Source: a virus (lineage: Duplodnaviria > Heunggongvirae > Uroviricota > Caudoviricetes). Taken from it: a stretch of 28,075 nucleotides of DNA. Positions 5,801-25,992 of the stretch are shown one piece after another. A program made the translations under genes and the position numbers. The stretch is taken from the IMG/VR virus record IMGVR_UViG_2744054962_000004, one strand, 5' to 3'. Position 1 is the stretch's first letter. Every line of letters begins with the position of its first letter. Below the pieces are notes generated by a model. It was not told where the DNA came from, searched no databases, and was given only the letters and a program-made list of their open reading frames with translations.

Positions 5801-5851
5801 ATCAACTGAGATGATTTTATGAATAAACAATAACTTAAATAGGAGAGATGC

Positions 5852-7376: not shown

Positions 7377-7388
7377 TGGAGGAATGAA

Positions 7389-8030: not shown

Positions 8031-8363
8031 ATGAAAAACGTAAACGACATCCGCGCCGATATTCTCGCCGCAATGCAGGCCGCTGCCGAACCGGAGAGCG
8101 GAGATCTGAATAAAAGCGCCGAGCAGGTGTTGGCTGATGCCATCGAGGGATATCTGACCGCTTCGACTGCAACAGCCAGCAAATCAGCCCCGAAAGCAAA
8201 GACCATAAAGGAAAAAGGGATCGCTCTGTGCCACCAGGCCCAAGGTTATAGCGCTAATCTGCGTCCGGTAAGTCTCATGATGAAGGCAAGTCTTGATGAG
8301 CTAACACCTGAACAACGCGCCGCGCTTGAGCGTCTGGGTTACGATATCAATCAGGGGGTGTGA
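8031..8363 (+). CDS. hypothetical protein (110 aa)
   Basis: In-frame ATG at 8031 inside the GTG-initiated track ORF 7974..8363. Stop TGA 8361-8363 overlaps the start of the next gene (TGATG), suggesting translational coupling. Confidence 0.45.
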   Translation: MKNVNDIRADILAAMQAAAEPESGDLNKSAEQVLADAIEGYLTASTATASKSAPKAKTIKEKGIALCHQAQGYSANLRPVSLMMKASLDELTPEQRAALERLGYDINQGV

Positions 8364-10510
8364 TGTCTGGTAATATTATAGTTAGCACCCTAACAAACCG
8401 AGTGGTCTGGGATGTCGATCAGACAAGTTACGGCAAAGCCTTAAAGGCTGTTAAATCCATCAAAGCTGCTCACGAGAAGCCCGCTAAAGCGCTGGAGAAG
8501 GCCCAGAAGAGGACCGCTCAGATGGAAGGCAAGGCTTCACTAGCATCGGCTAAGGCTCAGACAGCGAAGCTCCGCCAGGCTGAACAATTGTCAAAACAGC
8601 AACAGAAACAAGCTCAGATACAAGCCAAAATGGAGCGGGACGCAATCGCCCACGCCAATAAAATGACCTCATTACAGGCTCGCCAGTTATCTCAGCAGGA
8701 GCAGGCAGCACGGCAGAATGCCCGTTTAGCAGCGATTTCTGCAAAAGTGCAGGCCGCAGCCAGATCACGAGCGATGACCTACAACCCAAACATGGGCGGT
8801 CAACATTACGATCCTGGTCTTGTTTCCCGCCAGACTGACGCAATGAACCGTGGTCACGGCGCTGTTGCTGCCGACATTGCAGCCACTAAAAGGGCTATGG
8901 CCTTAGAAGAAAAGCGCCAGCGTGAGAAAGAGGCCAGTCTTAAACGCCAGAGCACTGCATACGATACTCTGCGCCGTGCCAGTTTAACTATCAGTCATAT
9001 CGAAGGCGCTAGCCTGGCTGACAAGATGAAAGCTGTGCAGGCAATCAAAGAGGCTACCAAGGGATACTCCGAGCAGCGTTACACCATCGCAGAAATGCGC
9101 CATGAACTTGCTAAAGCGACTCTGGAAACCAGGCGGCAGGCACGTATTAACCGCCAGATTGTTAAAGATAAAGCGAAAGCCAAGCGAGCAGGGCGCATCA
9201 ATGCTCAACGTCTGACCAGTGAACGTAGCGAACGTGGTTATGGTGGCCTCGCTGCTACTGGTGTAATTGCAGGTGGTTCCCTGATTGGCTCAATGGGGGT
9301 TGCTCGTGTTGGTCAGACACTACAGGGCAGTGTTGAACGCAACCAACAGATGAAGGCTTTACAGTCTCAAGGCATCTCACGTCTTGAATATGAAGCTGTG
9401 CGCGATGTTGTCGCCAACAAAACCGGCTTTAATATTTCTCCAGACAAAGCCCTTGATTTTTCTGCTGACTATAACGACAAAGTGGGCCAGTTGACGGCTA
9501 ACGGAACATGGAAGACCAACAAAAACGGTCAATCAACGTTGTCCGGTGGTGGTGAACTTGGTGACCTTATCAACGCTATTGCAGGCAAATCCAACGTTGC
9601 CACGGCAAAGCGCGTTGTTAAAGAACTCCAGGGTATCGACTTTAATCTCTTCCTTGTGTACCTCAAGCAATTGCAGAAGACTTTTAAGTTCACGGATAAA
9701 GAAACAGCCGCTTTTGCAGAAGCGATCAACGACGCAAGCAAGATCCTTCCGGCATTTGCTGATGGTGGTGAAGCTGTTCAGAAACGTATGGATGACCTCG
9801 CCCGGAATGGTTACGCCCTGAGCGAAGCACAACAGGAACAGCTAAACCGCCTAAGCGCTCTCTCTGTTGAATATTCAAGGATCAACGATTCGTTGAGTGA
9901 TATTTTCAGCTCAGGTTTTGCTGATGGGTTGGGAGAGGTTGGCAAGAACACTTCCAGCTTTAGCAAAGGTATGGCTGGCCTCGTTCCTATTATGGATAGT
10001 TTGGGGAAGGCTGTAGGCCAGGTGACTGCTGATATGTTGTTATTTGCCGGACGGGTGGGCCAACGTGTTAACGAGGGTGCAACACTTCCGGATGCAGTCT
10101 ACAACACCGTTGTGGATGATTCCGCAAACGGTGCTGCCGATTGGATTAAGGAAAAGACCGGCTTTGATCCACGTAGCATCGGTCAGACGCTTAAGCAGAT
10201 TTACCCGTGGCTAGATAGTTCAGCACCAAGCAATATCGGCTCAGGCACAGCGTATAACGATCCAGCGCTAGCGTTGAATGTTCCAGGTCTAAACTATCAA
10301 ACACCCCAGCAACCAACGTTTACGGTTCCGACAATTGATAGCATAGTTCAGCGACAGCCGATTCCTGTTGCGGTCACTGGCGAAGCTGAGATTAAACTCT
10401 CACCGCTTGATATTAACGTGAATGACGGCGCTATTAACGGTTTGATTGATACAAAACTGAGGAGCTATGAGCAGGCACAGAACAACATGATCCTTGGTAT
10501 TGCTCAATGA
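8363..10510 (+). CDS. large coiled-coil protein with Gly-rich hydrophobic segment (tape-measure-like or scaffold-like phage structural protein)
   Basis: 715 aa from ATG 8363, SD AGGGGG. N-terminal ~300 aa are K/A/Q/R-rich heptad-like sequence. Central GGLAATGVIAGGSLIGSMGV hydrophobic Gly-zipper. N-terminus and architecture parallel the 613-aa protein of island 2 (24151..25992). No Walker A motif. Confidence 0.6.
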   Translation: MSGNIIVSTLTNRVVWDVDQTSYGKALKAVKSIKAAHEKPAKALEKAQKRTAQMEGKASLASAKAQTAKLRQAEQLSKQQQKQAQIQAKMERDAIAHANKMTSLQARQLSQQEQAARQNARLAAISAKVQAAARSRAMTYNPNMGGQHYDPGLVSRQTDAMNRGHGAVAADIAATKRAMALEEKRQREKEASLKRQSTAYDTLRRASLTISHIEGASLADKMKAVQAIKEATKGYSEQRYTIAEMRHELAKATLETRRQARINRQIVKDKAKAKRAGRINAQRLTSERSERGYGGLAATGVIAGGSLIGSMGVARVGQTLQGSVERNQQMKALQSQGISRLEYEAVRDVVANKTGFNISPDKALDFSADYNDKVGQLTANGTWKTNKNGQSTLSGGGELGDLINAIAGKSNVATAKRVVKELQGIDFNLFLVYLKQLQKTFKFTDKETAAFAEAINDASKILPAFADGGEAVQKRMDDLARNGYALSEAQQEQLNRLSALSVEYSRINDSLSDIFSSGFADGLGEVGKNTSSFSKGMAGLVPIMDSLGKAVGQVTADMLLFAGRVGQRVNEGATLPDAVYNTVVDDSANGAADWIKEKTGFDPRSIGQTLKQIYPWLDSSAPSNIGSGTAYNDPALALNVPGLNYQTPQQPTFTVPTIDSIVQRQPIPVAVTGEAEIKLSPLDINVNDGAINGLIDTKLRSYEQAQNNMILGIAQ

Positions 10511-10940
10511 TGAAACAGAGGGTGGCGAATTCGTCGCCCCTATCTCAACACCGCAATGCGTATGTATCAAATTTAGCGACAAATCAAATACTTTTCGTGA
10601 AATTTATTGTAAATAATAATCATTCGTGTTAAAATAATATACAAGGTGAATTACAACAGCCAAATGTCATTCCCTTCTATAAAGCAGGCTCTGTGACACC
10701 GTGGAGCCTCTTTTGTGATGTGTCGCTTCCAGCCTCTCACTGGACGTTTGCCAACGGGCGGTACATCACAAAAGATTCGCCCTAGGGCGTACAAAGTCTG
10801 GGCCTCTGGTCTGGATTTGCCATTAAATCCGGCTCTCCTCCGGTCATCAGCCATGATGCAAACTGGCTCAGGTGTTCAGCGTTTGAGGCTCCTTACCTCT
10901 TGGATGGCGCTGATCACCTTCTCATTCCTACCAGTGAAAT

Positions 10941-10975
10941 TGACTCCGGACGACTCTCCGTCGGGTCACTTTTTT
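10941..10975 (+). terminator. candidate Rho-independent terminator inside the 570-bp intergenic gap
   Basis: tgactccggacgac / cgtcgggtca imperfect stem followed by cTTTTTT (10969-10975). Confidence 0.4.
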
Positions 10976-11078
10976 CATCGGAACAATTCGAAAGGCTGGC
11001 CCTGTTGCCGTTTACGGCTCAAGCAGGCGCTGGCCTTTTGTTTACATAGCTATGTGAAATTTAACGGGAGTTAATAAT

Positions 11079-11420
11079 ATGAAAATGGGAACAACTGAAC
11101 GTTCTTACAATGACGCGATCGCGTATGCAATCGATCCGAATTTTGACCGCAAGACTATTACCGTCGATCTGGCTGTAGAAGTCCAGCCGGGTAGTTGCAT
11201 TACCAGCGCTGGGGCTGCTTATGTCTCTGGTGATGACTGCCTGCTGGTTCTGAGCCACCACAGGGCCGAAGATGCTGCTCATATCATCGTTGCTGATCGC
11301 GGGATTTACATCAAACAAGACACCATCGTCGCTGTTATGGGCGCTACCGCTGGCGCTAATGCTATTGCCGCACTCACCAAAACGGGCGCAATCCGTACCA
11401 GCGCACCGGACGCAGAATAA
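11079..11420 (+). CDS. small phage-structural-like protein (head-decoration-like or tail-terminator-like)
   Basis: 113-aa ORF with ATG start, Ala/Gly-rich, directly upstream of the 344-aa protein. The same small/large pair recurs in island 2 (22334..22717 then 22732..23763). Assignment rests on size and order only. Confidence 0.45.
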   Translation: MKMGTTERSYNDAIAYAIDPNFDRKTITVDLAVEVQPGSCITSAGAAYVSGDDCLLVLSHHRAEDAAHIIVADRGIYIKQDTIVAVMGATAGANAIAALTKTGAIRTSAPDAE

Positions 11421-11438
11421 TAATAAGGAGAAGACAAC

Positions 11439-12473
11439 ATGGGACTATCAACCAATTTCAGCTACGCGGATTACACCAATACCTTTGTTAACATGGATGC
11501 AAAGAACACTTTGCTGTCCACGCTTAATGTTTTCAATGATCGACAGACTTCGGCTAGTCCAAAGGTCAGCCTTGATATCATTGATGAAGTAGCCCAGAAG
11601 GTGGCAAGCTCTGTTAATCGTTACGGCTCTGAGTGGTCCAGCATTCCTAAGCGTAGCTCTAGCAATCACCTTATCGAAGCTCCGCTTTATGCTTATCAGG
11701 ACCGTATTACAGCGGCAGACGTGCAACCATACCGCAAACCAGGTTCCGACCTGCAAATGTCTGTAATGGATGCGGTCACTTCTTCTGCTGTCGCAATGCA
11801 CGATAAGTACATGCGTACCCGTGAGCGGATTTTTGCTGATGCGCTTTTTCGTAATACCGTCGAAGCGACCTACACCCAGCAGCCAATCATTTCCTGGGAA
11901 GATGAATTTGGATACCAACAGGCAACCGGGACAATCAAAACCAGCGTTAGCTCTGGTGACCCACTTCGCAGCCTCGATGATGCAGTAACCGCTGCTAAAG
12001 TGCGCATGGGGGGCCTGGCTGGTCAGCTTGATGGATTTATCCTGTTTGCAGGTAGCAATGTTTATCGCGGCATTAAGTATCACCCTGATGTTCGTCAGAA
12101 TGTTCAGTTCGGTGTGCTTGATCGGGATGTTCTGTTTAATAAAGAAGTGCTTCCGGCATTCTCAACATTCATCATTGAAAATGTTCGAGTGGTGGAGGTC
12201 ACGGATCAGGCACTATACGGAATTGGTCCGGATGAATCCTTCCTGGTTCCACGCTTTAGCAAACCGCTGTCTTCGGATATTGCTCTGCCCTTCGGTTATG
12301 TGGCAACGGCTACCAGCCGCAATCTTGATCTGGCATTTGCTGATCCGGTTGATTTCCGTATCTGGAGCGTACAAGACAAGTTTAAGAACGTTGAGCTATT
12401 CGCGGAAAGCTCTATCTTGCCTGTTGTGTACCGCCCGGATTTCACTACACGACTGACGAACGACGCAGCGTAA
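11439..12473 (+). CDS. phage-structural-like protein, ~344 aa (major-capsid-E-like or major-tail-like)
   Basis: ATG start with SD AAGGAG 8 nt upstream. N-terminal region is similar to the island 2 343-aa protein (STNFSY...NTLLSTLNVFND vs STYFGV...NTLITNLDLFDV). Size and pairing with the upstream small gene mirror the lambda D/E arrangement, but fold not verified. Confidence 0.5.
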   Translation: MGLSTNFSYADYTNTFVNMDAKNTLLSTLNVFNDRQTSASPKVSLDIIDEVAQKVASSVNRYGSEWSSIPKRSSSNHLIEAPLYAYQDRITAADVQPYRKPGSDLQMSVMDAVTSSAVAMHDKYMRTRERIFADALFRNTVEATYTQQPIISWEDEFGYQQATGTIKTSVSSGDPLRSLDDAVTAAKVRMGGLAGQLDGFILFAGSNVYRGIKYHPDVRQNVQFGVLDRDVLFNKEVLPAFSTFIIENVRVVEVTDQALYGIGPDESFLVPRFSKPLSSDIALPFGYVATATSRNLDLAFADPVDFRIWSVQDKFKNVELFAESSILPVVYRPDFTTRLTNDAA

Positions 12474-12554
12474 GACAGCGGATTTTGGGGCTGACTATTT
12501 GGCCCCACCGTGAAGAATTGCCTGAAAAGGCGAGGCAAAGAAGAGGTGATTAGT

Positions 12555-12758
12555 ATGAAAATTCAATTTCAGACGAATAACGGTTTCCCGTTGCTGACTG
12601 TTGCAGACGAGCGCGTTTTAGATTTTCTGAACGTTAGCGCCGTGTGTCGGTTCCTGAAGGTTCCGCGCTCCTCGTTCATGATGAACGTTGAGCAATACGG
12701 GCTTGAAAAGGCAATCAGTGAAGCCCTGCTGAAGTTAAGAAAGAATAAAAATTGTTAA
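12555..12758 (+). CDS. small hypothetical protein (67 aa)
   Basis: In-frame ATG at 12555 with SD AAGAGG 8 nt upstream, inside the GTG-initiated track ORF 12510..12758. Confidence 0.4.
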   Translation: MKIQFQTNNGFPLLTVADERVLDFLNVSAVCRFLKVPRSSFMMNVEQYGLEKAISEALLKLRKNKNC

Positions 12759-12917
12759 TATTCAATATGTTGTTGTTTGTTGTCAAAAGAATCATTGTGT
12801 TTGTTTTTCGCGCATTTACTTGACACCCTGATGTAGATTGCGTAACCTTCACATAAAACTATTGCCTGCGATGTGTTCAGGTATTGTCGGAAACCCATCT
12901 TTAACCGAGGAGGTAAA

Positions 12918-13076
12918 ATGGCTATCACAAGTAGTATGTTTGGTCGCACCATCCTGACTGGTAAGGATGCTGAACAAATGCTCAAGCAGATGAGCAACGC
13001 TAAGCCTAACGATAAGGCTAAGCGTTCTTTAGAAAATGCTCGTCAGCTCCGCCAAAAAATGGCAAAAAAAGCATAA
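12918..13076 (+). CDS. small protein (52 aa), possible ribbon-helix-helix regulator or antitoxin partner of the downstream GNAT gene
   Basis: ATG at 12918 with excellent SD GAGGAGG 4-5 nt upstream. Predicted short strand then helices (RTILTGKDAEQMLKQM...). Lies 30 bp upstream of the GNAT-like gene. Confidence 0.5.
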   Translation: MAITSSMFGRTILTGKDAEQMLKQMSNAKPNDKAKRSLENARQLRQKMAKKA

Positions 13077-13106
13077 TAAAAACTAAGGGCAGGTTGTTAA
13101 ACGAAA

Positions 13107-13685
13107 ATGGATGATGTGTTACAACCTGACCTTCAGATTCTTCCCCTAAATCATTTCCATAACCACAAACGTTTCAGCAGTGGTTCAGAAGAATTCCAAC
13201 CTCTTAAATCTTTTCTTCAGAAAGATGCTTTATTATTTCAAGATGGTTGTATAGCTCAAACTTATGTTGTTGTTGATGACAACATGCGGAAGGATAAAGA
13301 AGAGCCTCTCGAAACATTCCCTCATAAAGTATTAGGTTATATAACGCTGACTTGCAGCCAAGTTAACCTTAAAGAATATGACTTAGGGGACTGTGTTCGT
13401 GCAAATACGTATGAGTACTTACCTGCCGTCAAGATTGCCCGTTTAGCTGTGGATGCAAAGTGTCGGACTGGCGGGATCGGTTCAATGCTGTTCGAATACG
13501 CCTTATTAATGTCATTGGATGATATTCGCCCTATGGTTGGGTGCAGGTTCTTGATAACCGATGCTAAGAGAAGTGCCATGGATTTTTATTATAAAAAAGG
13601 GATGGAGCTTCTTGATACGCAAGAAAATCAAGAGGCTGACCACCCCATAATGTTCATCGATCTTTTCACATTACTTGAAAACTGA
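13107..13685 (+). CDS. GNAT-family acetyltransferase, candidate GNAT-type toxin (TacT/AtaT-like)
   Basis: 192-aa ORF. ...LPAVKIARLAVDAKCRTGGIGSMLFEYAL... matches the GNAT acetyl-CoA-binding motif A (R-x-x-G-x-G after a beta strand). Preceded by a small ORF in toxin-antitoxin-like order. 3' end overlaps the integrase 3' end by 20 bp (convergent). Confidence 0.6.
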   Translation: MDDVLQPDLQILPLNHFHNHKRFSSGSEEFQPLKSFLQKDALLFQDGCIAQTYVVVDDNMRKDKEEPLETFPHKVLGYITLTCSQVNLKEYDLGDCVRANTYEYLPAVKIARLAVDAKCRTGGIGSMLFEYALLMSLDDIRPMVGCRFLITDAKRSAMDFYYKKGMELLDTQENQEADHPIMFIDLFTLLEN

Positions 13686-14871
13686 TCATCTCCACATACC
13701 CCGATAGCTCCCTCATCCCCGCGCCAGCGCTGTACGTTCTGAAACTCTCCGTTTTGCCTCGCTCATGGCCCACGATTAGGGCGATCCTGTCTTCTGGTAC
13801 ACCATGCCGATCAAGCTGGCTGATAAACATTCCTCGCAGACTATGAAACACCTTCCGCTCCGTGCCTTTCTCACCCAACGCTTTACGTTTAGCCCGTGTA
13901 AATCGCTGTGTATGCCACGTTGAGCGCTTGCCGTCTGCACGTTCGGTGATGCTGGCATGGTAGAACAGAAAGCCGTTGTGGTTGTTCTGGATGAGGTTTT
14001 TAATCAGTTTCGTCAATCGGCTATGAATTGGAACCAGGCGAGCCGCATTGCGTGTCTTACCCTCCGTCACATCGAAACACCATACCCCCTCAACGGTTTT
14101 GATATTGCTGATTTGCAGAGAGCAGATTTCGTTAAGGCGCATACCGCTATACATTCCCACTATCGCAACGGCTTTCATCTCTTCATCAAGCATCGCATAC
14201 ACCTTAGCCAGTTCGTCACCGCTAAAGGGTTCGTAGCTTTCTCGATCATGGCGCACGTCCAGTTTGTGGCCCGTGAATACATTGGCTTTCGGTGCGTCGT
14301 GATAGCGGTTTTGGGCTTGTGCCACTAGTTGGGACAGACAGCCAAGATAATTCGCCAGTGTCTGGCTGGCTTTCTCCTGCTTGGCGCTGTCTAACCAATC
14401 GGTGACCATAGTCCTGTTGATTTCCTGCAACTGGAAATCCTTACGCCGGAAATGAGCCGTGAAGACCTCCACCGCCTTAATGTACTTGCTCAGGGTAGAC
14501 AGCTTGCGCCTGTCACTGTGTTGGACAATAAATTCATCCCGCAGTTGAACAAGGGAGGGACACACACGAGCCGTGGCGAAGTCTATCCCATTATTTTGGC
14601 TTACATGCTGGTTGATAGAGCGCAGTTCCACCAGGACGCGATCGACACTGTTACGTTGGGGTTTTGGCTTGAGTCGGTCTCTGATAGCAAAAAATTCGTG
14701 CATGACTTTGTCACGAATGATTCGGGCTTCCCTGATATCTGCCGTGCCAGTTGTACGCATGAATGCTGTTCGATTCCCAAAAAGGGAACGCATATAAGGC
14801 GGAATAGTGACCTTGACGGAGTACACCGAAGAGTTTTCTTTAACAAGGTACGCATTAGGCTTGTATTTCAT
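13666..14871 (-). CDS. tyrosine recombinase / phage integrase (island 1)
   Basis: 401-aa ORF with ATG start. Box I region ...GMRLNEI..., then ...KVFHSLR..., ...GHERGKTESFRTY... consistent with the R...HxxR...Y catalytic signature. Sits next to the att repeat and shares a 49-aa identical block with the island 2 integrase. Confidence 0.9.
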   Translation of the reverse strand: MKYKPNAYLVKENSSVYSVKVTIPPYMRSLFGNRTAFMRTTGTADIREARIIRDKVMHEFFAIRDRLKPKPQRNSVDRVLVELRSINQHVSQNNGIDFATARVCPSLVQLRDEFIVQHSDRRKLSTLSKYIKAVEVFTAHFRRKDFQLQEINRTMVTDWLDSAKQEKASQTLANYLGCLSQLVAQAQNRYHDAPKANVFTGHKLDVRHDRESYEPFSGDELAKVYAMLDEEMKAVAIVGMYSGMRLNEICSLQISNIKTVEGVWCFDVTEGKTRNAARLVPIHSRLTKLIKNLIQNNHNGFLFYHASITERADGKRSTWHTQRFTRAKRKALGEKGTERKVFHSLRGMFISQLDRHGVPEDRIALIVGHERGKTESFRTYSAGAGMRELSGYVEMISFQVM

Positions 14872-14986
14872 CTTTCCCCCGATCTAATATTCAGGGGCAA
14901 CTGTGATCAGTTGTGTCAGTTTTGCCTTTCAGGAGCAGCGCATACGGTTCGAAGAATCAATGACTTGTGAAACACGTCATTGGAAT

Positions 14987-15022
14987 CGAAGGTCGTAGGT
15001 TCGACTCCTATTATCGGCACCA
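14987..15022 (+). repeat. junction att core: displaced 3' fragment of tRNA-Thr (with CCA) between island 1 and island 2
   Basis: cgaaggtcgtaggttcgactcctattatcggcacCA: identical to tRNA positions 41-74, followed by an intact CCA end; no 5' half present, so not a functional tRNA. Confidence 0.85.
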
Positions 15023-15628: not shown

Positions 15629-15781
15629 ATGAAAAATATTGCAGCTATCAAACGTAATAACCGCAAGATTCACGCTCGTAAGTTCCTGTCTACGCCAGAA
15701 GGAAAAGCCTGGCTAGAGCGTAAACAGAGAGAGAACGAAGAAAGAAAACTCCTTAGTGAGTTGAAATGGCTTAAGGATTGA
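15629..15781 (+). CDS. small basic protein (50 aa), function unknown
   Basis: ATG 15629 with SD GAGG 7 nt upstream, stop TGA 15779-15781; absent from the ORF track because it is under 60 aa. MKNIAAIKRNNRKIHARKF... is highly basic. Confidence 0.4.
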   Translation: MKNIAAIKRNNRKIHARKFLSTPEGKAWLERKQRENEERKLLSELKWLKD

Positions 15782-15791
15782 ATCACCAGTA

Positions 15792-15833
15792 GGCGCATAA
15801 CACATCCAGCGATCAAAGATGTGTTTATGCGCC
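15792..15833. other. long near-perfect hairpin (15-bp stem) between convergent mini-ORFs
   Basis: GGCGCATAACACATC (15792-15806) pairs with GATGTGTTTATGCGCC (15818-15833) with one bulge and an 11-nt loop; no U-tract on either side. Confidence 0.5.
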
Positions 15834-15847
15834 TGATAGTGAAATTA

Positions 15848-16006
15848 TTAAAGTCGTTTAGTTAACATCGCCATTGCTTGAGCAATAATTGCAACAGCGT
15901 CCATCTCTTCACTGGAAGCGATGCAAATGCGGTAACTAATAGCCACAATGAATACATCAATAACGAGAAAGTGAATAGTGTGAAGATGTTTTGAAAGTAA
16001 ATGCAT
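15848..16006 (-). CDS. small hydrophobic protein (52 aa), function unknown
   Basis: ATG at 16006 with strong SD GGAGG and 5-nt spacer; my reverse-strand translation is MHLLSKHLHTIHFLVIDVFIVAISYRICIASSEEMDAVAIIAQAMAMLTKRL. In a different frame from the TTG-initiated track ORF 15862..16071. Confidence 0.4.
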   Translation of the reverse strand: MHLLSKHLHTIHFLVIDVFIVAISYRICIASSEEMDAVAIIAQAMAMLTKRL

Positions 16007-16400
16007 AACTTCCTCCGGTTTTGGGATAGGAGGATTAGAACATGCATTAAATGATGTTGCAAGAATGGCAATTTACCCTAATAGTCTACTATTCACCTCA
16101 ATCTACGTCAACCAATATTTGATGTAGATTTAATTTTCTTTTAAAAACAATATGTTGTTATTTGTTGAATTTTGGGGTTAGGTTGTTTTTTGAACGTTTT
16201 CATCAAGTGTAAAGATACGTTTAGCCTTCATAGTGAGTTCAGTTACTGTCTTTTTCTCTGAAATCGGCGCAAACGTGATCATCGCTTGAGGTTGCTGCTC
16301 TTACTTCTCAAATTGTGATGGAGAACGATAAAGGTTAGAGGGCACTTTTATTTTTTTAAGCAAGTGTATAGCATAAGAATAATCTAAAAAGGGAGGTTAT

Positions 16401-16952
16401 ATGCGCAGGTCTGCATTTGTGAGGATGATGATTTTTACAACGTTGTTTGTAGGGGGAACTTCTACCGCAGTTGCTAAAAACTGCAAAAAAGGAATACCTT
16501 GTGGTAACTCGTGTATAGCTGTTGGTAAGACGTGCCGGATTGGCTCTTATGCCCCTTCATCTTATAAAAATCATTCATACTCTTATCCTTCATCCTCTAT
16601 TCGAAGCTCGCAATCAAATAATTCACGAAAAACTGAAGGAGTGAAAACGACTCCTGCTGCCAAAAATTATCTTTGCCAATACTCTATTGCATCAATCGAA
16701 AACGGACGTTTAGGGGCATTACGTGTTCAGGGATACGCACAAGTAACTTTATATGCAGATAGCTTCAAGGCTAACAGATTAAATGGAACATATTTGATAT
16801 CGCCAAAACTGAATGCTAACGGCAAGTTTATGATGGCAGATGATAAAAGCAAGGTTTATGCTTATGATTCTTGGCTATTAAATTTTGCAATAAGCGATCG
16901 TATCACAAGAACGACAGAACAATGGGATCGATGTAAGCTCAATCAAAAATAA
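16401..16952 (+). CDS. secreted Cys-rich protein (signal peptide), function unknown
   Basis: 183-aa ORF with ATG start and SD GGGAGG. N-terminal signal peptide (MRRSAFVRMMIFTTLFVGGTSTAVA) followed by CKKGIPCGNSCIAVGKTC cysteine cluster and a Ser/Tyr-rich linker. AT-rich. Confidence 0.55.
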   Translation: MRRSAFVRMMIFTTLFVGGTSTAVAKNCKKGIPCGNSCIAVGKTCRIGSYAPSSYKNHSYSYPSSSIRSSQSNNSRKTEGVKTTPAAKNYLCQYSIASIENGRLGALRVQGYAQVTLYADSFKANRLNGTYLISPKLNANGKFMMADDKSKVYAYDSWLLNFAISDRITRTTEQWDRCKLNQK

Positions 16953-18080
16953 CAGTTAGAGAAGCTCTTGTAGAGGCATTATTGAGTTATTGGTTTTAAT
17001 ATTTTTGTGCCTCTATGGGCTTTTTTTGCCTTTTTGCAATGTAGAAGAGAGCACAGGAATCGTTAAAATTAATTATTGGGGTATTTAAGGTTATTTTCAG
17101 GTGATTTAAGGGTATTAAACGTAATTTAAGTGATTAAAATATAAACAGGTTGTTCTGTATCTTATTGATTTATAAGGTTGTTTTCAAATAAAGGTAAATA
17201 AAAAATAAATAGCCATAAATAGCTATAAATACATCTAAATACATATGAATCCCCTCCCTTATGGCTAGATTGCGAGAGGTGCTTAACGCGATTTTCAGCG
17301 CCCCCCGATCTGGAAAATCCAGAATCCCCAAATATCAGCAAGGAATTTTCTTGCGTAATCAACATCGTTTTTACCTATTAAATCATTACACAGAAAGCCT
17401 TTCTGTAATGTCTCTCACTAAACTTTCACTAAACACGAGAATGATCGGTTTTATGTCGGATCAGATGCTAGAAACAGCACCACGTCTCACAAGGGCTGTA
17501 AGCGATGAAACCAGTGTTTATGCGGGTGCAGGTCAAAATATAGGCCAAAATACATTTAACATAATAATCGTAATATGCACTAAGGAACACATAGAACGCC
17601 TTGAGTTGATGTATCAGGGGAAAAATGGTGTATTTTTTACGTAGGAGCACGAGAGGGCTTCTATTGACTTTTGTATGCTATGAAATATAATAGAAGATTT
17701 TTTATTTTTATGTTGATAGTGATTGCACATTAAAGATTGAAAGCAAATTTAAACATAAATTTTCAACACGTGAAAGAACTTGTTCAACAAATGATAGAAC
17801 GTTTATTGAGCAACAATTTTGCAGTGATGCGCTATATGCCGCATAACATAAGGCTTTGCTGATGATGACGCAAAAGTGAAGAAAGTAAGAATTGCATTTT
17901 GAAGCCATTTTTCTTGGATTTTTTAGTATGGAATTACACAGGGATTAATCATCAATTAATCTTGAATTTAAGCTTGTTTTAGATGTTTAATTTTTGATAG
18001 CAAGAAAGACTTTTACTGATTATAAGAAGATCATTGCACAGATGTTATGTGATGGATGTAACGGTAGGTCACTGTGAGCT

Positions 18081-18217
18081 ACCCCCACAGAATTCTGTTA
18101 TCCTTAACTTTTAAAGAAATATGCACCCTAACAGAAAACTGTTACCCCAACCCTAACAGAATTATGTTAGACACCCCCACAGAAAACTGTTAGCCACCCC
18201 TACAGAATTTTGTTACC
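18081..18217. repeat. five iteron-like direct repeats (~22-23 bp), candidate replication origin or operator array
   Basis: acccccacagaattctgttatcc (18081), accctaacagaaaactgttacccc (18125), ccctaacagaattatgttag (18151), acccccacagaaaactgttagcc (18172), acccctacagaattttgttacc (18195). Consensus CCCYMACAGAAWWNTGTTA with internal dyad ACAGAA..TCTGT; four copies are tandem at ~23-bp spacing. Confidence 0.7.
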
Positions 18218-18908
18218 TATTAGATCAACTATCAAACTACAATTAAATTATCTTTTATAAATTCTTTTATCTTTAAAGAATAATTATAGGGATACCCGTT
18301 AGGGAGTCTTCGACTATCCCTTAATCTATTGGCATTCGCCAGAACCTTGCACAAGTTAGAGTGTTAGTCAGTTAGACTGATACTTCTCATAACACATAGT
18401 TTTTGTTTGTTAATGTTAGTTAGTAGATCTATGTTCGCTTTCCGCTCACAACGAATATGTAATCTACTATGTGCAAATAGCCTACGGCTTGCGTAAGGCT
18501 AAATAGTCTTGCGCTGTGCGCAGAACGATAATTAACTAACTACCATCTAACGATCATCAATCATCTAAAATAAATTTCTTGTGCAATGTTCTTGCGAATG
18601 CAATTAGGGTAGCGTTACCCCTTTGGGGATGCTAACGCATAACTATAGATCAACCATCAAACAGACAAAAAAGAAAAATATGGTTTAAAGATGTTAGGTA
18701 GTAGATGAGTTTCTACCGCTTAAATCAAACCGTAGGCGAGCTAAACAGCCATTACATAAGGGAATGTATTGTTTTTATCAAAACCTCGTTAGAACGCGTT
18801 TTAGAGCGTTTTAGACAATAATGAAGAATTGGAGTATTCGTAAGAGCACGAATTGCTAAGAAAAATCATAACACACTGAAAATGATCAATATTTTTATGG
18901 CTGGGGGG

Positions 18909-18937
18909 TTGACAAAAGCCTTTAGTCGTGGTAAAGT
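18909..18937 (+). promoter_or_regulatory. sigma70-like promoter for the island 2 rightward operon
   Basis: TTGACA (18909-18914), 17-bp spacer, TAAAGT (18932-18937), about 120 bp upstream of the first ATG (19059). Confidence 0.4.
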
Positions 18938-19058
18938 AATATTAGGGGCAGGAAAACATTCTTATCCTTTAAATAATTAAACCAATGCATCGCACTTTGA
19001 AGCCCAAGGCTTGCAAGGTGTCTATTTCTTTTAACTAAATAGAATAGGAGGTTAATTA

Positions 19059-19259
19059 ATGAAATATTTCACTCCACAGGATATTGTGGAAGCCTGGAAA
19101 CGTGGTGAGATCAACCGTTTTAAAGTAAGGATGAACAGGAACACAGCGCGACGCTGTGGTTATCCAGAGCGTGAAAAATGCTTTGACGATGCACTAAAAA
19201 TTATTGATGAATTAAGAAAAAATGAAAAAGGATCTGAAAAAGAATCTGAAACAGAGTAA
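19059..19259 (+). CDS. small hypothetical protein (66 aa)
   Basis: ATG with SD AGGAGG 7 nt upstream; charged, helical-looking; no recognisable motif. Confidence 0.45.
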   Translation: MKYFTPQDIVEAWKRGEINRFKVRMNRNTARRCGYPEREKCFDDALKIIDELRKNEKGSEKESETE

Positions 19260-19278
19260 AGAAGAGAAGGAGAAAACT

Positions 19279-19449
19279 ATGAGCGAAACTACAGAAAAGA
19301 AAAGGCAACCACGCACTTGCTTTCATATTCCTGATGAAGTATTTCAGGTGTTGTTTAAAGAAGCCAGAAGTAAACGTATCACTGTTACAGATTACATTCT
19401 TGATATGTTGAAAAGAGAGGCTGAAACACTCTCAAACAAAAGCAAGTGA
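19279..19449 (+). CDS. ribbon-helix-helix-like DNA-binding protein (56 aa)
   Basis: ATG 19279 with SD AAGGAG 6 nt upstream (preferred over the upstream ATG 19222, which overlaps the previous gene). ...RTCFHIPDEVFQVLFKEARSKRITVTDYILDMLKRE... has the strand-helix-helix pattern of Arc/CopG-type proteins. Confidence 0.5.
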   Translation: MSETTEKKRQPRTCFHIPDEVFQVLFKEARSKRITVTDYILDMLKREAETLSNKSK

Positions 19450-19502
19450 TTTTTATCACCATAGTAGCGCCGTAGAGCGTGATTACATCAAGGAGATTTT
19501 TA

Positions 19503-20072
19503 ATGATTAATGAAGAACAATTTGTAAAAGTTCCTATGTGGATTCTAAAAATAAGCCAAGTAAACGGGCATAAATTTACAGATAGTGCTAAAAACCTTTA
19601 CTGCTATCTGAGAGGGTTTGATCGTGCATTTCCCTCTTACGCTAAGATAGGCGATGTTTTTGGCATAACACCAAGAGCAGCAGAAGAAAGGGTTAAGAAA
19701 TTGCTCGAAATGGGATTAATTATAAAAGATGCACGACCAGGAAGCTCTAACCTTTATCGAGTGCTTGATATTCCAAAAGGAGAATCATCACTACCTGATC
19801 CTTCTGAGAAAGAAGACGAATCTAATGAAATATTGAATGTTTCCGAAATCATCGTTGAAGAAGAAACACAAGAGCCAGAGTTCCCTGAGCGGCCCGAAAT
19901 TTTTACTTGGCTTCTTTCCCTTGATAAGAAGAAACCACCGCACGAAGAAACAGAAGATTTTGTAAAACGAGCATTAGATTCAAAGAATATCTATCTTTGT
20001 GAAAATGATTTTGACTCTTTGATAATTGATCTCAAAAGTGAGAGCACAATATATGATTCACTACCCTTTTAA
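19503..20072 (+). CDS. putative replication initiator / winged-helix DNA-binding protein with acidic C-terminal tail
   Basis: ATG 19503 with SD AGGAGA 6 nt upstream (track ORF starts at GTG 19479). ...YAKIGDVFGITPRAAEERVKKLLEMGLIIKDARPGSSNLYRVL... HTH plus wing. Acidic tail (EKEDESNEILNVSEIIVEEETQEPEFPE). Counterpart of island 1 gene 6576..7376. Confidence 0.55.
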   Translation: MINEEQFVKVPMWILKISQVNGHKFTDSAKNLYCYLRGFDRAFPSYAKIGDVFGITPRAAEERVKKLLEMGLIIKDARPGSSNLYRVLDIPKGESSLPDPSEKEDESNEILNVSEIIVEEETQEPEFPERPEIFTWLLSLDKKKPPHEETEDFVKRALDSKNIYLCENDFDSLIIDLKSESTIYDSLPF

Positions 20073-20206
20073 GGAAATAAATGATTTATAACATCACAAA
20101 CAATCAGTAACAACAGATCGGGCAATACATATGGCAAGTGCATTTGTAGCAATATTCATCGTAACTATGGCATTCAGTTTTTATAATCCACATAAAAAGA
20201 GGGAAA

Positions 20207-20587
20207 ATGGGAAGAAAGAAAAAGAACAACTTAAAACGTATTGAGCAAGGGAACACCTTCAACGACGTAAGAAAGCAAGTTTATAAGAATAATGAAGAAG
20301 CAGGTGAAGAGATAGTCTTCATTTTAGAATCTAACAGCCCACCACTTACAAACGAAGAATTAGAAATTATTCAATCAATGGGTGATGGTGTGTATTTCAA
20401 ACCCAGAACAAGAAAGACAACGATTATAGAACCTGGCACATTGAAGAAATGGCAATTGTTAGGCTTTACCTCATTTCGTCACTATACAGGCTTCAATTCG
20501 TTCAACAATCAGGTAGGCGGCGTTACAGAAACAGATCTGATGCAGCACCTGATCGACACTCTCGCATCTAACAAACGTTCTAACTAA
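20207..20587 (+). CDS. hypothetical protein (126 aa) with basic N-terminus
   Basis: ATG start, SD-like AAGAGGGA upstream; MGRKKKNNLKR... N-terminus. Confidence 0.45.
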   Translation: MGRKKKNNLKRIEQGNTFNDVRKQVYKNNEEAGEEIVFILESNSPPLTNEELEIIQSMGDGVYFKPRTRKTTIIEPGTLKKWQLLGFTSFRHYTGFNSFNNQVGGVTETDLMQHLIDTLASNKRSN

Positions 20588-20602
20588 TAGAAAGACGGGC
20601 GT

Positions 20603-20848
20603 ATGTATAAGCGCCCAATGAAAATATTCGAAAAAGGAAAAATAATGATTGGCTATATTCAAGAAACACAATTATTTCAGATGCTCCTGTCTGATGCAAA
20701 AAACTATGCTGAGTTAATCCGGCTGGCAAAAGAAACAGAAGACTACGAAGCATTAGAACGTTACCGTGATGAAGTGCTGACGCTCAAGACACCTTTTAAC
20801 ATCGTATTGAATATGATTAATGATGCATTACAAGGAGAATACGCATAA
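20603..20848 (+). CDS. small hypothetical protein (81 aa; alternative starts at 20618 or 20645)
   Basis: ORF with three in-frame ATGs; the one at 20645 has the best SD (AAAGGAAA). Stop overlaps the next start (ATAATG at 20846-20850). Confidence 0.4.
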   Translation: MYKRPMKIFEKGKIMIGYIQETQLFQMLLSDAKNYAELIRLAKETEDYEALERYRDEVLTLKTPFNIVLNMINDALQGEYA

Positions 20849-21150
20849 TGGAAGAAGATATTAGCAATGCAATGGAACAACTTTTAGATCTGACTATCTC
20901 ACTACAAACAAGAATAAATCAAGCCTATTCAGATTTATGCGATTATACGCTCTCTCAATGCGTTATTAGCTTAATGAAGCTCAATGTATGCTTAGAAGAT
21001 TTTGTCTCTCTGGTGAGCGATTTAGAGCTATCAGATGCCAAGATGTGCACTCAAACCATCACAGACACCGCCAGCACGTTAAAGGCTGCAAGTGAAGAGA
21101 TTCAGCAATTAGTAAATGATTTAGCAAAAAGTGCTATTTTCTCTAAATGA
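20848..21150 (+). CDS. hypothetical protein (100 aa)
   Basis: ATG with SD AAGGAGAA 8 nt upstream; start overlaps the upstream stop (translational coupling); predicted helical. Confidence 0.45.
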   Translation: MEEDISNAMEQLLDLTISLQTRINQAYSDLCDYTLSQCVISLMKLNVCLEDFVSLVSDLELSDAKMCTQTITDTASTLKAASEEIQQLVNDLAKSAIFSK

Positions 21151-22057
21151 TAATGAAAATCATTTGCATTTATGATGATTTTGTTATATAATAATTTTAG
21201 GGGTAGATTAAAAGATTTTAGTTGGTGTTAATCCTTCTACTGTCATAAATCCCTGCATATGGAAGGTGATAGCCTCAAAGGTTGAGTGGCATTAACCTCT
21301 AACAAATATTACCTTCCATCTATCAAGAAGTTTTAGAATAATCATAACTCCCTCTTTGATTGTTGATTGTTTCTACGTTGTGTTGATGAATGTTGTTAGG
21401 CATTGTGCTTAATTTTTGATAAAAGCGGGTAGGTGTTATCTCCTTGCCCTTCCCGCTCTTATTTTTCATCTATGCTTATCCTAAAGCTCCTTATTTTGTC
21501 CGAAAACATTAAAGAGCCTTACACTGATAGTTATATTTTATAACTATTTACTAACATCATTAAACTCTTATTTAATGACGGAAGTTAGTAACAGAATAAT
21601 CTATTAAGTTGTTGTCAAAAAACTATCATCTGCATAGCGTTAGCCGCAAGTAGAGAGAGTTTAGCTAAGAATGGTGCAATAAACTTTGGAAATATTGATA
21701 GCAAAACGGGTTTTATAGAATGCGGATCTATAATCTTTGGTTGTGAAACGATTTTCTGAAACGGTAGATTACTGTTGGTGTAGTTAATCCTTATTAAAAA
21801 TTTAATCTGTGAGTAGATTGGAATAGTGATTCCTTAAAATCTGACTGGTGCATCCACACCATGAAAGATAGCGGTTAGCCACCGCGCCCCGAATAGATAT
21901 TCCTGATTGATTCCGCATGTTTTCTTAAGAGCATGTTTTCAGGAGTATCTATTCACCCTTTAAGCATATCATCAAGTATATTTAAAAAGTGTATTTGCTG
22001 ATATGTTTAATCCTCTTATAGTTTAACTTATCAATTATGTAATTGCCCGCACGTTAA

Positions 22058-22104
22058 AGCCCCTTTGCTGGTCAGAACCTCTTACGGCATTGGGGCTTTT
22101 TATT
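22058..22104 (+). terminator. candidate intrinsic terminator / attenuator upstream of the structural-like operon
   Basis: AGCCCC ... GGGGCT inverted repeat with a long (28-nt) loop followed by TTTTTATTT. Confidence 0.35.
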
Positions 22105-22131
22105 TGTCTGGCACTAACAGGAACGTTATTT

Positions 22132-22731: not shown

Positions 22732-23763
22732 ATGAATGATTTATCAACATATTTTGGCGTTAATACTGCGGTAGTAACTCCATTTGCTTATGAGAATGCA
22801 CTTAATACCCTGATTACTAATCTCGATCTGTTCGATGTGCAATATCATACAGAAAACAGCATTCTTCTTACCGACCTGATTGATCAGTTTGTGCAGGTAG
22901 CTGGGGAAACCTCGCCTTACGCTCAAAGCGACTGGAACGCCTCTAAACGTCAGGAATGGTCAAACAAACTTTTCCAGATGAAACACGTCGGCAGTATTAA
23001 CGCTGTTACTTCTCGTGACCTGGAACAATACAGCCGCCAATATCCAAACCGTTCTGATGCTATGCTGGTAGCGGTTAATGATTTCTCTGAGGCACATTAC
23101 CGTTCACACGCAAACCGTGTTGAAGTGGATCTGATTACCGCGCTGCTGGGCCTGAAAGTTGAATCTGAATATGCCGGACAAGGTGATCTCGACTTCCTCG
23201 ACGGTCAGGCTAAAACCACGGTACCCGCTATCGACTTTGCATCGACTACTGTTAACCCGTTCCTTGCTATTCGTAAAGCGGTGCGCTTACAGAGTGAAAA
23301 GCTGGGGTCTGGTCTTGCTGCAAAGCGAACTGGTGTAATTATCTTTGCTGCTGGCGCTGCTGCTGATGGTTTGTCATCTAACCCGCTGATCAGTGACATG
23401 GTGAAATATGCAGGTGATGCGAGTGCTACGGCCCTGTTTACCCGTATGGTTGATTCTAACCCAGCCTATGACTCTTTCCAGATTGGTGGGATCACTGTTA
23501 TTGATGTGTCAATGTTTCCTGAGATTGTTGCTCACATCGGAGAGAACGGTTTCGCAATTGTTCCAGTAATGGATAAAGCGGCACAGTGCTATCAGCTTCA
23601 TAGCGGCGTTGGTGTGCGTCATGCTGAGTTAGGTCAAGATGCCGTGTTACATCACCAATATCTAATCAAGGATGAATTCCAATTCCCATCTGTGGTTACT
23701 GAGACATCTTATCTGCCAGTAAACAACATTCCGCAAGCTATCATCTTCGGATCTGCTGCGTAA
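22732..23763 (+). CDS. phage-structural-like protein, 343 aa (major-capsid-E-like or major-tail-like)
   Basis: ATG start. N-terminal similarity to island 1 protein 11439..12473; same size. Fold not verified. Confidence 0.5.
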   Translation: MNDLSTYFGVNTAVVTPFAYENALNTLITNLDLFDVQYHTENSILLTDLIDQFVQVAGETSPYAQSDWNASKRQEWSNKLFQMKHVGSINAVTSRDLEQYSRQYPNRSDAMLVAVNDFSEAHYRSHANRVEVDLITALLGLKVESEYAGQGDLDFLDGQAKTTVPAIDFASTTVNPFLAIRKAVRLQSEKLGSGLAAKRTGVIIFAAGAAADGLSSNPLISDMVKYAGDASATALFTRMVDSNPAYDSFQIGGITVIDVSMFPEIVAHIGENGFAIVPVMDKAAQCYQLHSGVGVRHAELGQDAVLHHQYLIKDEFQFPSVVTETSYLPVNNIPQAIIFGSAA

Positions 23764-24150: not shown

Positions 24151-25992
24151 ATGTTAGAACTTAACGTCAGCCGCTTATCAAACGTTGTCACCTTCCAGGT
24201 TGATCGACCATCATTAGAGAAAGCAAAAGCAGAAGTAGAAAAACTTCGTAAACAAATGGCGGCGGTGAAAGATATAGAATTGCGTGTTAAGACACATAAA
24301 CAATCAACCGCTAAAGCAAAAAAAGACGTAGACGATATTGCTAAAAAGCAAGCACAGGCAGATAAAGCCAATGCTAAAGCACAATTAGCCGCTCAACGTG
24401 TAGTTGCAAGAGAACAAAAAGCCCTGGCAGCACGCAAAGAGAAGGCAGAATTAAAGCTTTTAGACGTTGGATCAAGCATTAGTGCAATGCACCGTCTTTC
24501 TGTAGCGGAACAATATAAAGCTATTGCACAGGCTAGAGAAATTGCCCTCCAATATGAAAGAGGCGCTATTAGTCTGGCACGTATGAATAGCCAAATGAAA
24601 CGCCTACAACAGCAACAACGTAAGATTAATGGCAATCGTAACGCTCACGCTAAAGCCTATGCACCTGTTAAGGGTAGCGGGAGTATTGGCGGCGGTGCTG
24701 CGGCTGTTATGCTGGGTGGCTTAGGCGCTGGCGCTACGTATATGGCTATGAGCAAAGCCTCTGAATTTGTTACTAACAGCTTTGCGAATGCTGAAACGCT
24801 GGGTGAATTGTATAGCCGTGCGAAGCTGGGCGGTGTAGACGTTAACCAGATGAACGATGTTGAACAATGGGCGTATAAAAACGGCGTTGATTCAATGATG
24901 GGCGAACAAGGTAAACGTAAGTATCTGGATCAGATGAAAGATGTGCGTGAACGTGCAACCAAATCTTATGATGAAGCTGAATATGTAGTTGATAAGAAAA
25001 CTGGTAAAGGAGAATGGAAGGGCGGCGATAGCGGCATCAATACTTTAATGAATGAAGGATTCCTAACTAAAAAGGATCTAAAAGACTTTGCTGATAATCC
25101 GGCTGGTCTGGTTAGTAAAGCAGTTCAGGGAATGGTAGCTAAAGGCTATTCAGATGCACAAATCGGTAGTCGTCTGGAAGATCTGGCTGATGATTTGATG
25201 CTCACCTCTAAATACTGGACACGCTCCGCTAAAGAAGTGGAACAATCAGCACGAGAACAACGAGAATCAGGGCGCTGGGTAACACAGGCACAACAGGAAA
25301 GCGTTATTAAATTCCGTGAACTGAATAATGCACTTAGTGGGCTTTCTGACTCACAAGGGATCGCCTTTGTTGATGGCTTTATGAAATCTCTCGATCCTGC
25401 TGTGATTGAAGAGTTCAAAAAGAGTATGGTTGCAATGCTGCCAATGTTTACCAAATTAGGCGAGGCTATCGGCGGATTGGTTAACGCCGTAATGAAAGCA
25501 ATCAACTGGCTGATGAAAAACGACGAGAAGACGGAAGCTATTCAGAAGAATTTAGGTGATGCACCGCCACTGTCTAACGAAGGGATGAAACAGAATCTTT
25601 CTAATCTCGTTCCTGATCAATATAAAGGCGCTGGCACCGGAACAACTAAGCCAGATAACAGCAATTCCCTGTTTAACACTATTAAAGGCTGGTTTACGCC
25701 AGAAGAAACGGTAGGCGGGGCGCAGGCTGTAAATCAATACACTCTCGAAGGACAAAACATTGCAAATCTGAAACAGAGTGCAGCACAACAAGCTATCAAG
25801 ACTCCTTCTTACACCTTTGCACCTGTTATTAACTTCAATCCAGAATTACAAGTAAATGCAGAAGTGCCGCTAACTATCGAATCAGACACCGGACGATTGA
25901 GCGAATTTATCGACTTCAAATCAAAGGCATCCTCCGCTGAGTTTAGCAAGCTATTAACGCTGGGTGTTATGTCAGGCGGGTCAACCTATTAA
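24151..25992 (+). CDS. large coiled-coil protein with Gly-rich hydrophobic segment (tape-measure-like or scaffold-like)
   Basis: 613-aa ORF with ATG start. K/A/Q-rich coiled-coil N-terminal third, then GSGSIGGGAAAVMLGGLGAGATYMAM hydrophobic Gly-zipper. N-terminus parallels island 1 protein 8363..10510 (LELNVSRLSNVVTFQVD vs IIVSTLTNRVVWDVD). Confidence 0.6.
   Translation: MLELNVSRLSNVVTFQVDRPSLEKAKAEVEKLRKQMAAVKDIELRVKTHKQSTAKAKKDVDDIAKKQAQADKANAKAQLAAQRVVAREQKALAARKEKAELKLLDVGSSISAMHRLSVAEQYKAIAQAREIALQYERGAISLARMNSQMKRLQQQQRKINGNRNAHAKAYAPVKGSGSIGGGAAAVMLGGLGAGATYMAMSKASEFVTNSFANAETLGELYSRAKLGGVDVNQMNDVEQWAYKNGVDSMMGEQGKRKYLDQMKDVRERATKSYDEAEYVVDKKTGKGEWKGGDSGINTLMNEGFLTKKDLKDFADNPAGLVSKAVQGMVAKGYSDAQIGSRLEDLADDLMLTSKYWTRSAKEVEQSAREQRESGRWVTQAQQESVIKFRELNNALSGLSDSQGIAFVDGFMKSLDPAVIEEFKKSMVAMLPMFTKLGEAIGGLVNAVMKAINWLMKNDEKTEAIQKNLGDAPPLSNEGMKQNLSNLVPDQYKGAGTGTTKPDNSNSLFNTIKGWFTPEETVGGAQAVNQYTLEGQNIANLKQSAAQQAIKTPSYTFAPVINFNPELQVNAEVPLTIESDTGRLSEFIDFKSKASSAEFSKLLTLGVMSGGSTY

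Follow-up and report, generated by a model that had tools for sequence, protein, structure and literature searches.

Several described phage satellites carry the packaging signal of a helper phage. The cos site of P4 is identical to that of P2, and the cos-type Staphylococcus aureus pathogenicity islands (SaPIs), such as SaPIbov5, as well as cos-carrying phage-inducible chromosomal islands (PICIs) of E. coli, contain helper-derived cos sequences. In T7 and T3, the packaging signals of the concatemer junction are pac sequences located at the terminal repeat. Replication initiators of the lambda O type are laid out with an N-terminal domain that binds the iterons of the origin. The phi92-like and related myophages infect a very broad range of hosts and are components of cocktails for phage therapy. 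The locus considered here lies in a 28,075-nucleotide stretch of DNA (IMG/VR record IMGVR_UViG_2744054962_000004; hereafter, the window), which is E. coli chromosome downstream of proA and a tRNA-Thr gene (1369-1442) and holds two integrase-bearing islands in tandem. The second, island 2, includes a gene-free stretch at 16953-19058.

We read this gene-free stretch, with moderate confidence, as the cis-acting control region of an integrative phage satellite that employs large virulent myophages as helpers and a copy of their genome end for packaging. The putative helpers are phi92-like members of the Stephanstirmvirinae, with genomes of ~148 kb and direct terminal repeats of ~343 bp. The control region would consist of four parts: a packaging module (17020-17337), whose core copies the phi92-like end and is accompanied by a CAAATATC box 45 nt away; a filler with a conserved segment (17338-17945); an origin, in which iterons (18080-18218) adjoin a stretch suited to unwinding (18220-18290) and would be bound by the Rep-like protein through its N-terminal winged helix; and a hairpin-rich segment followed by the operator and promoter of the regulator/rep operon (18300-19058).

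The copy of a phage genome end

When the 2-kb region was compared with 50,697 phage records, 61 of them matched, none over more than 78 bp, and the 46 matches listed at 95-99% identity all fall on 17264-17309 and all belong to phi92-like phages. On the minus strand, this segment is identical to positions 318-363 of phi92 at 44 of 46 positions, 40 of the identical bases being consecutive in a local alignment (E = 1e-10 against 2.3 Gb of phage DNA). It is this near-identity to the genome-end sequence of phi92-like phages that makes the copy recognizable. The left direct terminal repeat of phi92 is annotated as 1-343, which places its inner boundary (343/344), where the right genome end arises, within the match. 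The termini of phage BME3 have been determined with PhageTerm, which gave a 342-bp repeat (PMC12210895). The BME3 record begins at AACGCGATTTT (AACGCG...), and that of Klebsiella phage phi1_175008 ends with ...AAAATCGCGTT (...CGCGTT), its left repeat beginning AGCACC; these two independent records agree with the phi92 end within 1 nt. The site thus coincides with the physical end of virion DNA in phi92, BME3, and phi1_175008, and the equivalent position in the island is 17283|17284 by the phi92 annotation or 17284|17285 by the BME3 and Klebsiella phage records.

When three islands are aligned with phi92, Antha, phi1_175008, and Citrobacter phage Tr1, a single block proves invariant, the 27-nt core ATTGCGAGAGGTGCTTAACGCGATTTT (17269-17295), outside which the phage flanks diverge. 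The distal box CAAATATC (17329-17336) lies exactly 45 nt from the TAACG of the core, and this spacing is identical in phages (phi92, Tr1, and two of the Klebsiella type) and in islands (those of E. coli and L039 of Klebsiella). The spacer itself varies in sequence: that of the Klebsiella island resembles the spacer of the Klebsiella phages (TTTCAAATTT), and its distal part in the E. coli island equals that of Tr1. The Klebsiella island, despite its divergence, keeps a GGTGCTTAACGC core together with the exact 45-nt spacing. Core and box lie at the right edge of a conserved module (17020-17337) common to related islands, in which homology starts at 17020 and breaks off right after 17337; its left part is AT-rich with phased repeats, namely, three to four copies of TTTAAGG (17084-17135) and four copies of ATAAATA with a 10-bp period (17205-17244), detected by Tandem Repeats Finder (TRF).

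The site occurs once per island. Among 5,426 complete E. coli genomes it is found in 425 (~8%, or ~1 in 12), exclusively in chromosomes, with at least 95% identity in 412, whereas relatives of the whole 2-kb control region occur in 729 (~13%) and no relevant relative was found on plasmids. Scans for the exact core located it in 12 island and three phage loci among the IMG/VR records examined and in two contigs of a species-representative genome collection. A second subgroup of islands carries a serine recombinase beside a diverged site (TTAACGnGAAGATCAGCG ... AAATATC, spacing 44), and in the island of PM7 (L008), the site is a hybrid that contains a recombination joint. The first-pass annotation had suggested a satellite-specific packaging site in the region; a candidate does exist at 17264-17337, but none of the motifs that the annotation listed is that site. 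That the genome-end copy serves as a packaging site appears fairly probable from its sequence and position, packaging itself being inferred from these.

The same phage group is indicated by two island genes. The product of the 613-aa tape-measure-like gene (24151-25992, + strand) has phage homologues in 134 records only, all from myophages of ~141-153 kb, and those among the listed records with a taxonomy line belong to the Stephanstirmvirinae. It aligns end to end with gp126 of Justusliebigvirus PHB05 at 26% identity over the full length, and the adjacent Dit-like baseplate gene (26040-26717, + strand) encodes a protein 49% identical to gp127, the neighbor of gp126 in that phage, so that the two genes are syntenic with their phage counterparts. 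The Dit-like protein finds its best phage matches (~53%) in E. coli myophages of ~150 kb, of the ESCO5/nieznany type, and weaker ones in other phage groups as well. The tape-measure protein of the syntenic Klebsiella island also finds 134 phage records, with the same host breakdown, and this island has a gene-free gap of ~1.8 kb with the same order of elements. Four records of ~146 kb labeled as Campylobacter phages A150, A145, C3, and A110a (MG0656xx) match the phi92-type site and the tape-measure protein in the manner of E. coli Justusliebigvirus genomes, and their host label looks doubtful.

The iterons and the Rep-like protein

The region had been proposed to hold an iteron-type origin, with five 22-23-bp iterons containing an internal dyad. 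Five class-A iterons, CCCC(C/T)ACAGAAnnCTGTTA, are indeed present on the + strand at 18080-18218, each with a ACAGAAnnCTGT dyad. The copies lie at 18080-18103, 18124-18147, 18149-18172, 18172-18195, and 18195-18218, with start spacings of 44, 25, 23, and 23, and TRF reports the array with a period of 23/48 and a score of 131; an iteron origin calls for at least three tandem direct repeats of ~17-23 bp in helical phasing, a pattern that the five copies display. The last iteron is adjoined by a candidate DNA-unwinding element (18220-18290) of 82-88% AT, corresponding to the AT-rich neighbor expected of such origins. Single relic copies of two other iteron classes, B and D, lie immediately upstream of the array, at 18056-18084.

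The presumed cognate initiator is a Rep-like protein of 189 aa (19503-20072, + strand), which combines a variable N-terminal winged-helix domain with a C-terminal tail common to classes A-C. It matches replication initiation families of PHROG (1e-8), and these matches are initiators of the lambda O type. Pfam and PHROG reveal no helicase or primase domain in the protein, which would therefore have to recruit the replisome of the host or the helper. The iterons are ~1.3 kb upstream of the rep gene and ~700 bp upstream of the operon promoter, with no overlap.

The relation between iterons and initiator is best seen in related islands, where the flanks of the iteron block align while the block itself is swapped for other repeat families. 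The iterons of 19 loci fall into four classes (A, CCCCnACAGAAnnCTGTTA; B, GTAACGAnnnGTTACA; C, CCAGGAAATGAGTTCC; D, GGTAGGTCAyWGTGArCTA), which pair with four classes of the Rep N-terminal domain. The class D protein also differs in its C-terminus from the tail shared by classes A-C. Locus L034 is a natural domain-swap chimera, in which a class-C N-terminus is joined to a C-terminus of the window type, and its iterons are of class C, so that the match between initiator and iterons extends to this locus. The arrays are mosaic, and L027 carries a composite one. This covariation constitutes strong evidence, at the level of sequence, that Rep would bind the iterons through its N-terminal domain, and binding together with origin function is highly probable. 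An origin is the best reading because the covariation is accompanied by an AT-rich flank and by initiator homology; the earlier proposal thus gains strong comparative support. Furthermore, the cassettes of Rep N-domain and iterons form a natural series of specificity swaps that might serve in studies of the recognition of iterons by initiators. In the Klebsiella pneumoniae loci L039-L042, the ~1.8-kb gap contains two different repeat families, the Rep candidate has 275 aa, a small recombinase lies to the left of the site, and the Dit-like gene is missing.

The remaining segments and the island context

The first-pass annotation described the region as gene-free and AT-rich, and the former description holds. 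The sole sizeable open reading frame (ORF), 17261/17351-17644, shows no coding signature and was rejected as a gene: its 27 variable sites among 12 islands are distributed 10:9:8 over the codon positions, three relatives have in-frame stops, some have 3' frameshifts, and neither Pfam nor PHROG gives a match, and in RefSeq some strains have it annotated as hypothetical while others do not. The latter description is accurate in absolute terms (32-36% GC), but the neighboring island DNA (16001-21500) has 34-38% GC, and the region therefore has no AT excess over its surroundings. Every repeat that the annotation listed is present, at positions that differ by 2 nt at most. These include TAGATCAAC(T/C)ATCAAAC at 18221-18237 and 18646-18662 (94% identical); ATGTTAG(T/G)TAGTAGAT at 18691 and at 18413, previously given as 18411, with its inverted partner ATCTACTA at ~18461; and the palindromes 17384-17410 and 18611-18640, both of them imperfect. 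The nested inverted repeats are also real, one of them having 30-nt arms (18326-18355 and 18578-18607) that are 87% complementary. The motif ATTGCACA is enriched in the window (six copies against 1.7 expected), and three of its copies fall within the gene-free region.

To the right of the packaging module follows a conserved non-coding filler (17338-17729), which contains the pseudo-ORF 17351-17644, the palindrome 17384-17410, and a strong sigma70-like site directed rightward on the + strand (17664-17691; promoter scan, 11/12). A structured RNA at 17338-17675 was considered and rejected (z = -1.05 and +0.59). Many relatives (L008, L011, L016, L027, and L030-L037) have instead, at the position of the filler and beside the CAAATATC box, a gene for a 183-aa serine recombinase on the minus strand. 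The next segment, 17757-17945, is conserved at 74-92% in most of the island subtypes examined.

Downstream of the origin candidate, a nest of inverted repeats and hairpins occupies 18300-18640 (+ strand). On either strand, the stretch 18290-18660 folds far better than its shuffles (+ strand, z = -5.85; - strand, z = -5.14). The 5' half of the nest is invariant in 12 loci, and covariation there can therefore not be judged; over the whole, the covariation term is +1.74, with double changes in three of 100 predicted pairs. A single large stem, of RNA or DNA, formed from the 30-nt arms at 18326 and 18578 is not supported, as the 3' arm varies uncompensated and the covariation is unfavorable. Rfam, searched with gathering and E-value thresholds, returned only the tRNA and one match at chance level, and the region shows neither a match to a known Rfam family nor covariation in favor of one. 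Within the nest, the palindrome GCGCTGTGCGC (18511-18521) is universal, being present in every island examined (L007-L039, including that of Klebsiella), and its position is always downstream of the iterons. The hairpins in front of it are interchangeable; two of them can be read with a GTAA loop of the GNRA type, and a GAAA loop is possible in a third. Upstream lies a CGCTCAYAAC box that the E. coli and Klebsiella types have both conserved. These features hint that GCGCTGTGCGC and its hairpins form a transcribed leader or a single-strand initiation signal.

The right end of the region precedes, as had been noted, the operon of small genes and the Rep-like gene, which starts at 19059. A tandem GCGTTTTAGA repeat (two copies, 18796-18815, + strand) and a promoter-like TTGACA-17-TAAAGT with a TG extension (18909-18937, + strand) are both conserved in the Klebsiella island and are probably the operator and promoter of the regulator/rep operon. 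The first-pass annotation had also suggested a multi-site operator; for the iterons, the evidence speaks neither for nor against such a role, and the tandem repeat is a better operator candidate than they are. The first-pass annotation had assigned the 56-aa protein to the ribbon-helix-helix (RHH) class, a label that found no support in Pfam, even in a relaxed search of the small island proteins.

Island 2 has a length of ~13.2 kb, extending from ~15021 to just beyond 28075, and is inserted at the tRNA-Thr gene. Its left edge follows a 35-nt copy of the 3' end of this tRNA (14986-15020, attL), and its right edge (attR) is a 17-20-nt copy ~140-160 bp past the end of the window. In strain AH25, the island directly adjoins the tRNA, and relatives occupy several tRNA sites, namely, thrW, leuX (tRNA-Leu), and tRNA-Gly. 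The gene order runs from a variable cargo slot (15780-17019), missing in most relatives, through the gene-free region, two small genes, the gene for the 189-aa Rep-like protein, and several small genes without assigned function to a second gap (21151-22131), which is followed by the genes for the capsid protein, the tape-measure-like and Dit-like proteins, and a tyrosine integrase (26798-28075, - strand). The protein encoded at 22732-23763 (+ strand) is assigned as a major capsid protein of the lambda-E type by its family homologues (44-49% identity), nine of 13 family members carrying Pfam Phage_cap_E; its own Pfam match fails, its PHROG major-head match is weak, and tblastn against phages gave no match. 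Pfam and PHROG scans of island 2 detected no portal, protease, or terminase gene, and apart from the tape-measure gene, no ORF is big enough for a portal or terminase.

Several further observations concern the surroundings. The cargo slot holds an ORF of 183 aa (16401-16952; PHROG 2578/14768, of unknown function) that could be an accessory or defense gene. A Fur-box-like AAATGATAATGAAAATCATTTGCAT at 21141-21194 overlaps a sigma70-like TTGCAT-17-TATAAT and stands at the head of the second gap, before the capsid and tail genes; boxes of the form GATAATCATT, similar to this sequence, are repeated inside and beside the terminal repeat of phi92. Island 1 (1443-15020, ~13.5 kb) separates the tRNA from island 2 and lacks the phage-end site; its tyrosine integrase, of the DUF6538 type (13666-14871, - strand), is related to that of island 2.

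A proposed satellite and its relation to known systems

In the proposed mechanism, infection by a phi92-like helper would lead to excision of the island and to replication from the iterons. The helper terminase would then recognize the mimic site and cut it at ~17283-17285, and the island DNA would be packaged, probably into capsids built from the lambda-E-type protein of the island itself, while the tape-measure and baseplate homologues may alter the assembly of the tail. Induction, cleavage, and packaging of the island DNA are what we infer from the observations described above. Several points weigh against this scheme. An island genome of 13 kb does not fit a 148-kb capsid, and the absence of portal, protease, and terminase genes makes the combination of an own capsid with helper parts speculative. 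Neither the other phi92 terminus (AGAAAGTAGGCT|CAAC) nor a second GGTGCT|TAAC-like site was found in the island; one of the two repeat boundaries is mimicked, which leaves the T7-style generation of terminal repeats unexplained. None of the 29 metagenome contigs that carry the site is circular or has an end where the cut would fall, no phage matches the diverged site found in the second subgroup of islands, and we know of no experimental mapping of the terminase recognition site of these phages. As regards the origin, no DnaA boxes, sites for integration host factor (IHF), or enrichment of GATC were found in 16900-19100, and the Pfam match of the Rep-like protein to HTH_36 (6e-4) is below the curated cut-off.

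Some of these points also bear on other explanations of the genome-end copy. It could be a decoy or sensor, which binds the helper terminase or another end-binding protein and either blocks maturation, as a defense, or triggers induction, the island DNA staying unpackaged. The same sequence evidence would serve this explanation, the single boundary and the lack of packaged ends in metagenomes agree with it, and the tape-measure and baseplate homologues could then be dominant-negative tail poisons. It is nevertheless unlikely in our view, given that the island is fully equipped as a mobile satellite (integrase, own origin, own capsid protein), that its family is found at thrW, leuX, and tRNA-Gly sites, an occupation of several tRNA sites that implies horizontal movement, and that known satellites use helper cos or pac sites for packaging. 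It is far less credible that the 46-bp match is a neutral remnant, left by an earlier recombination of phage and island and devoid of present function. The islands of the family are highly mosaic, and the PM7 hybrid site has its internal recombination joint; however, an identity of at least 95% in 412 genomes amid varying adjacent modules, the GGTGCTTAACGC core and 45-nt spacing retained by the diverged Klebsiella island, and the standing of the site in phages as the one invariant block amid diverged non-coding DNA all speak against this explanation.

The remainder of the region likewise admits other explanations. The iterons may be an operator or partition-type array for the winged-helix protein, concerned with autoregulation or incompatibility, with replication starting elsewhere or depending wholly on the helper. 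The small size of Rep (189 aa, with neither helicase nor primase domain) and the absence of DnaA boxes are in line with such a role, and covariation indicates binding rather than initiation. Yet the distance of ~700 bp to the operon promoter, which the iterons do not overlap, the adjoining stretch of 82-88% AT, the PHROG matches to initiators of the lambda O type, and the parallel to lambda O in the N-terminal iteron-binding domain and common C-terminal tail (A-C) render this improbable. Somewhat less improbable, though still doubtful, is that much of 17700-19058 constitutes a long transcribed leader with functional RNA hairpins for processing, antitermination, or P4-like RNA immunity, with which an origin could coexist. 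The strong promoter-like site at 17664-17691 on the + strand, the very stable fold (z = -5.85), the universal GCGCTGTGCGC palindrome after interchangeable hairpins, some with GNRA-type loops, and the CGCTCAYAAC box kept in the E. coli and Klebsiella islands point in this direction. On the other hand, Rfam gives no match, the covariation term of +1.74 with double changes in only three of 100 pairs and the uncompensated variation in the 3' arm of the long inverted repeat are unfavorable, and the minus strand folds almost equally well, as expected of palindromes that act at the DNA level.

Taking the satellite explanation as the preferred one, island 2 is probably a variant of known satellite cis-elements and the marker of an undescribed satellite family; no description of this element, or of a satellite of these phages, was found in the searchable literature. 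We tentatively propose, as a possibility just short of an even chance, that this family is widespread in Enterobacteriaceae (E. coli and Klebsiella) and exploits the Stephanstirmvirinae by means of a copied end site, a Rep/iteron cassette that can be exchanged, and capsid, tape-measure, and baseplate proteins that it supplies itself, and that it would be the first satellite known to rely on terminal-repeat packaging and to remodel both head and tail. A common chromosomal element with a phage end site and tail homologues would be a candidate parasite of phi92-like phages or a candidate defense against them. If the proposal is true, it points to the unmapped terminase cut or recognition site of a phage subfamily, in the form of a 27-nt core and a box 45 nt away, and brings helpers with packaging of the direct-terminal-repeat type into the scope of satellite biology.

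The markers of described satellite types are largely missing from island 2. Pfam and PHROG gave no match there to P4-like markers (alpha primase-helicase, sid/psu/delta, P2-type cos), and of the markers of PICIs and capsid-forming PICIs (cf-PICIs), namely, pri-rep/alpA, portal, protease, adaptors, small terminase, and capsid, only the capsid protein is present. A major capsid protein of its own is a feature that the island shares with cf-PICIs, but the cf-PICI hallmarks of portal, protease, head-tail adaptors, and small terminase are all missing from it. With the phage-inducible chromosomal island-like elements (PLEs) of Vibrio cholerae, it shares an inferred helper that is a virulent myophage, but the PLE hallmarks, i.e., a RepA_N initiator, a large serine integrase, and TcaP, are absent. 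In contrast to both cf-PICIs and PLEs, it carries homologues of the tape-measure and baseplate proteins of the helper.

The putative origin resembles that of lambda, with its initiator O, and those of iteron plasmids such as pSC101, R6K, and P1, in that four to five repeats of ~22-23 bp with an internal dyad stand next to an AT-rich neighbor and the N-terminal winged helix appears to set the iteron specificity, the C-terminal part being common to classes A-C in the islands. Unlike in lambda, the iterons are situated ~1.3 kb upstream of rep and not inside the gene. The island also differs from lambda and the iteron plasmids in the absence of DnaA boxes, the very small size of Rep (189-229 aa), and the mosaic arrays with relic iterons. 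With regard to packaging, the cis site at the edge of a short direct terminal repeat is reminiscent of the pac sequences of T7 and T3, to which it bears no sequence relation. A further parallel is with the cos sites of P4, SaPIs, and PICIs, in which a chromosomal island likewise carries a short copy of the helper end, once per element, for use by the helper terminase. Unlike these elements, for which the copied sequence is a temperate-phage cos or headful pac, island 2 presents one of the two boundaries of the short direct terminal repeat of a large virulent myophage, and its packaging by the helper is a role that this sequence suggests.

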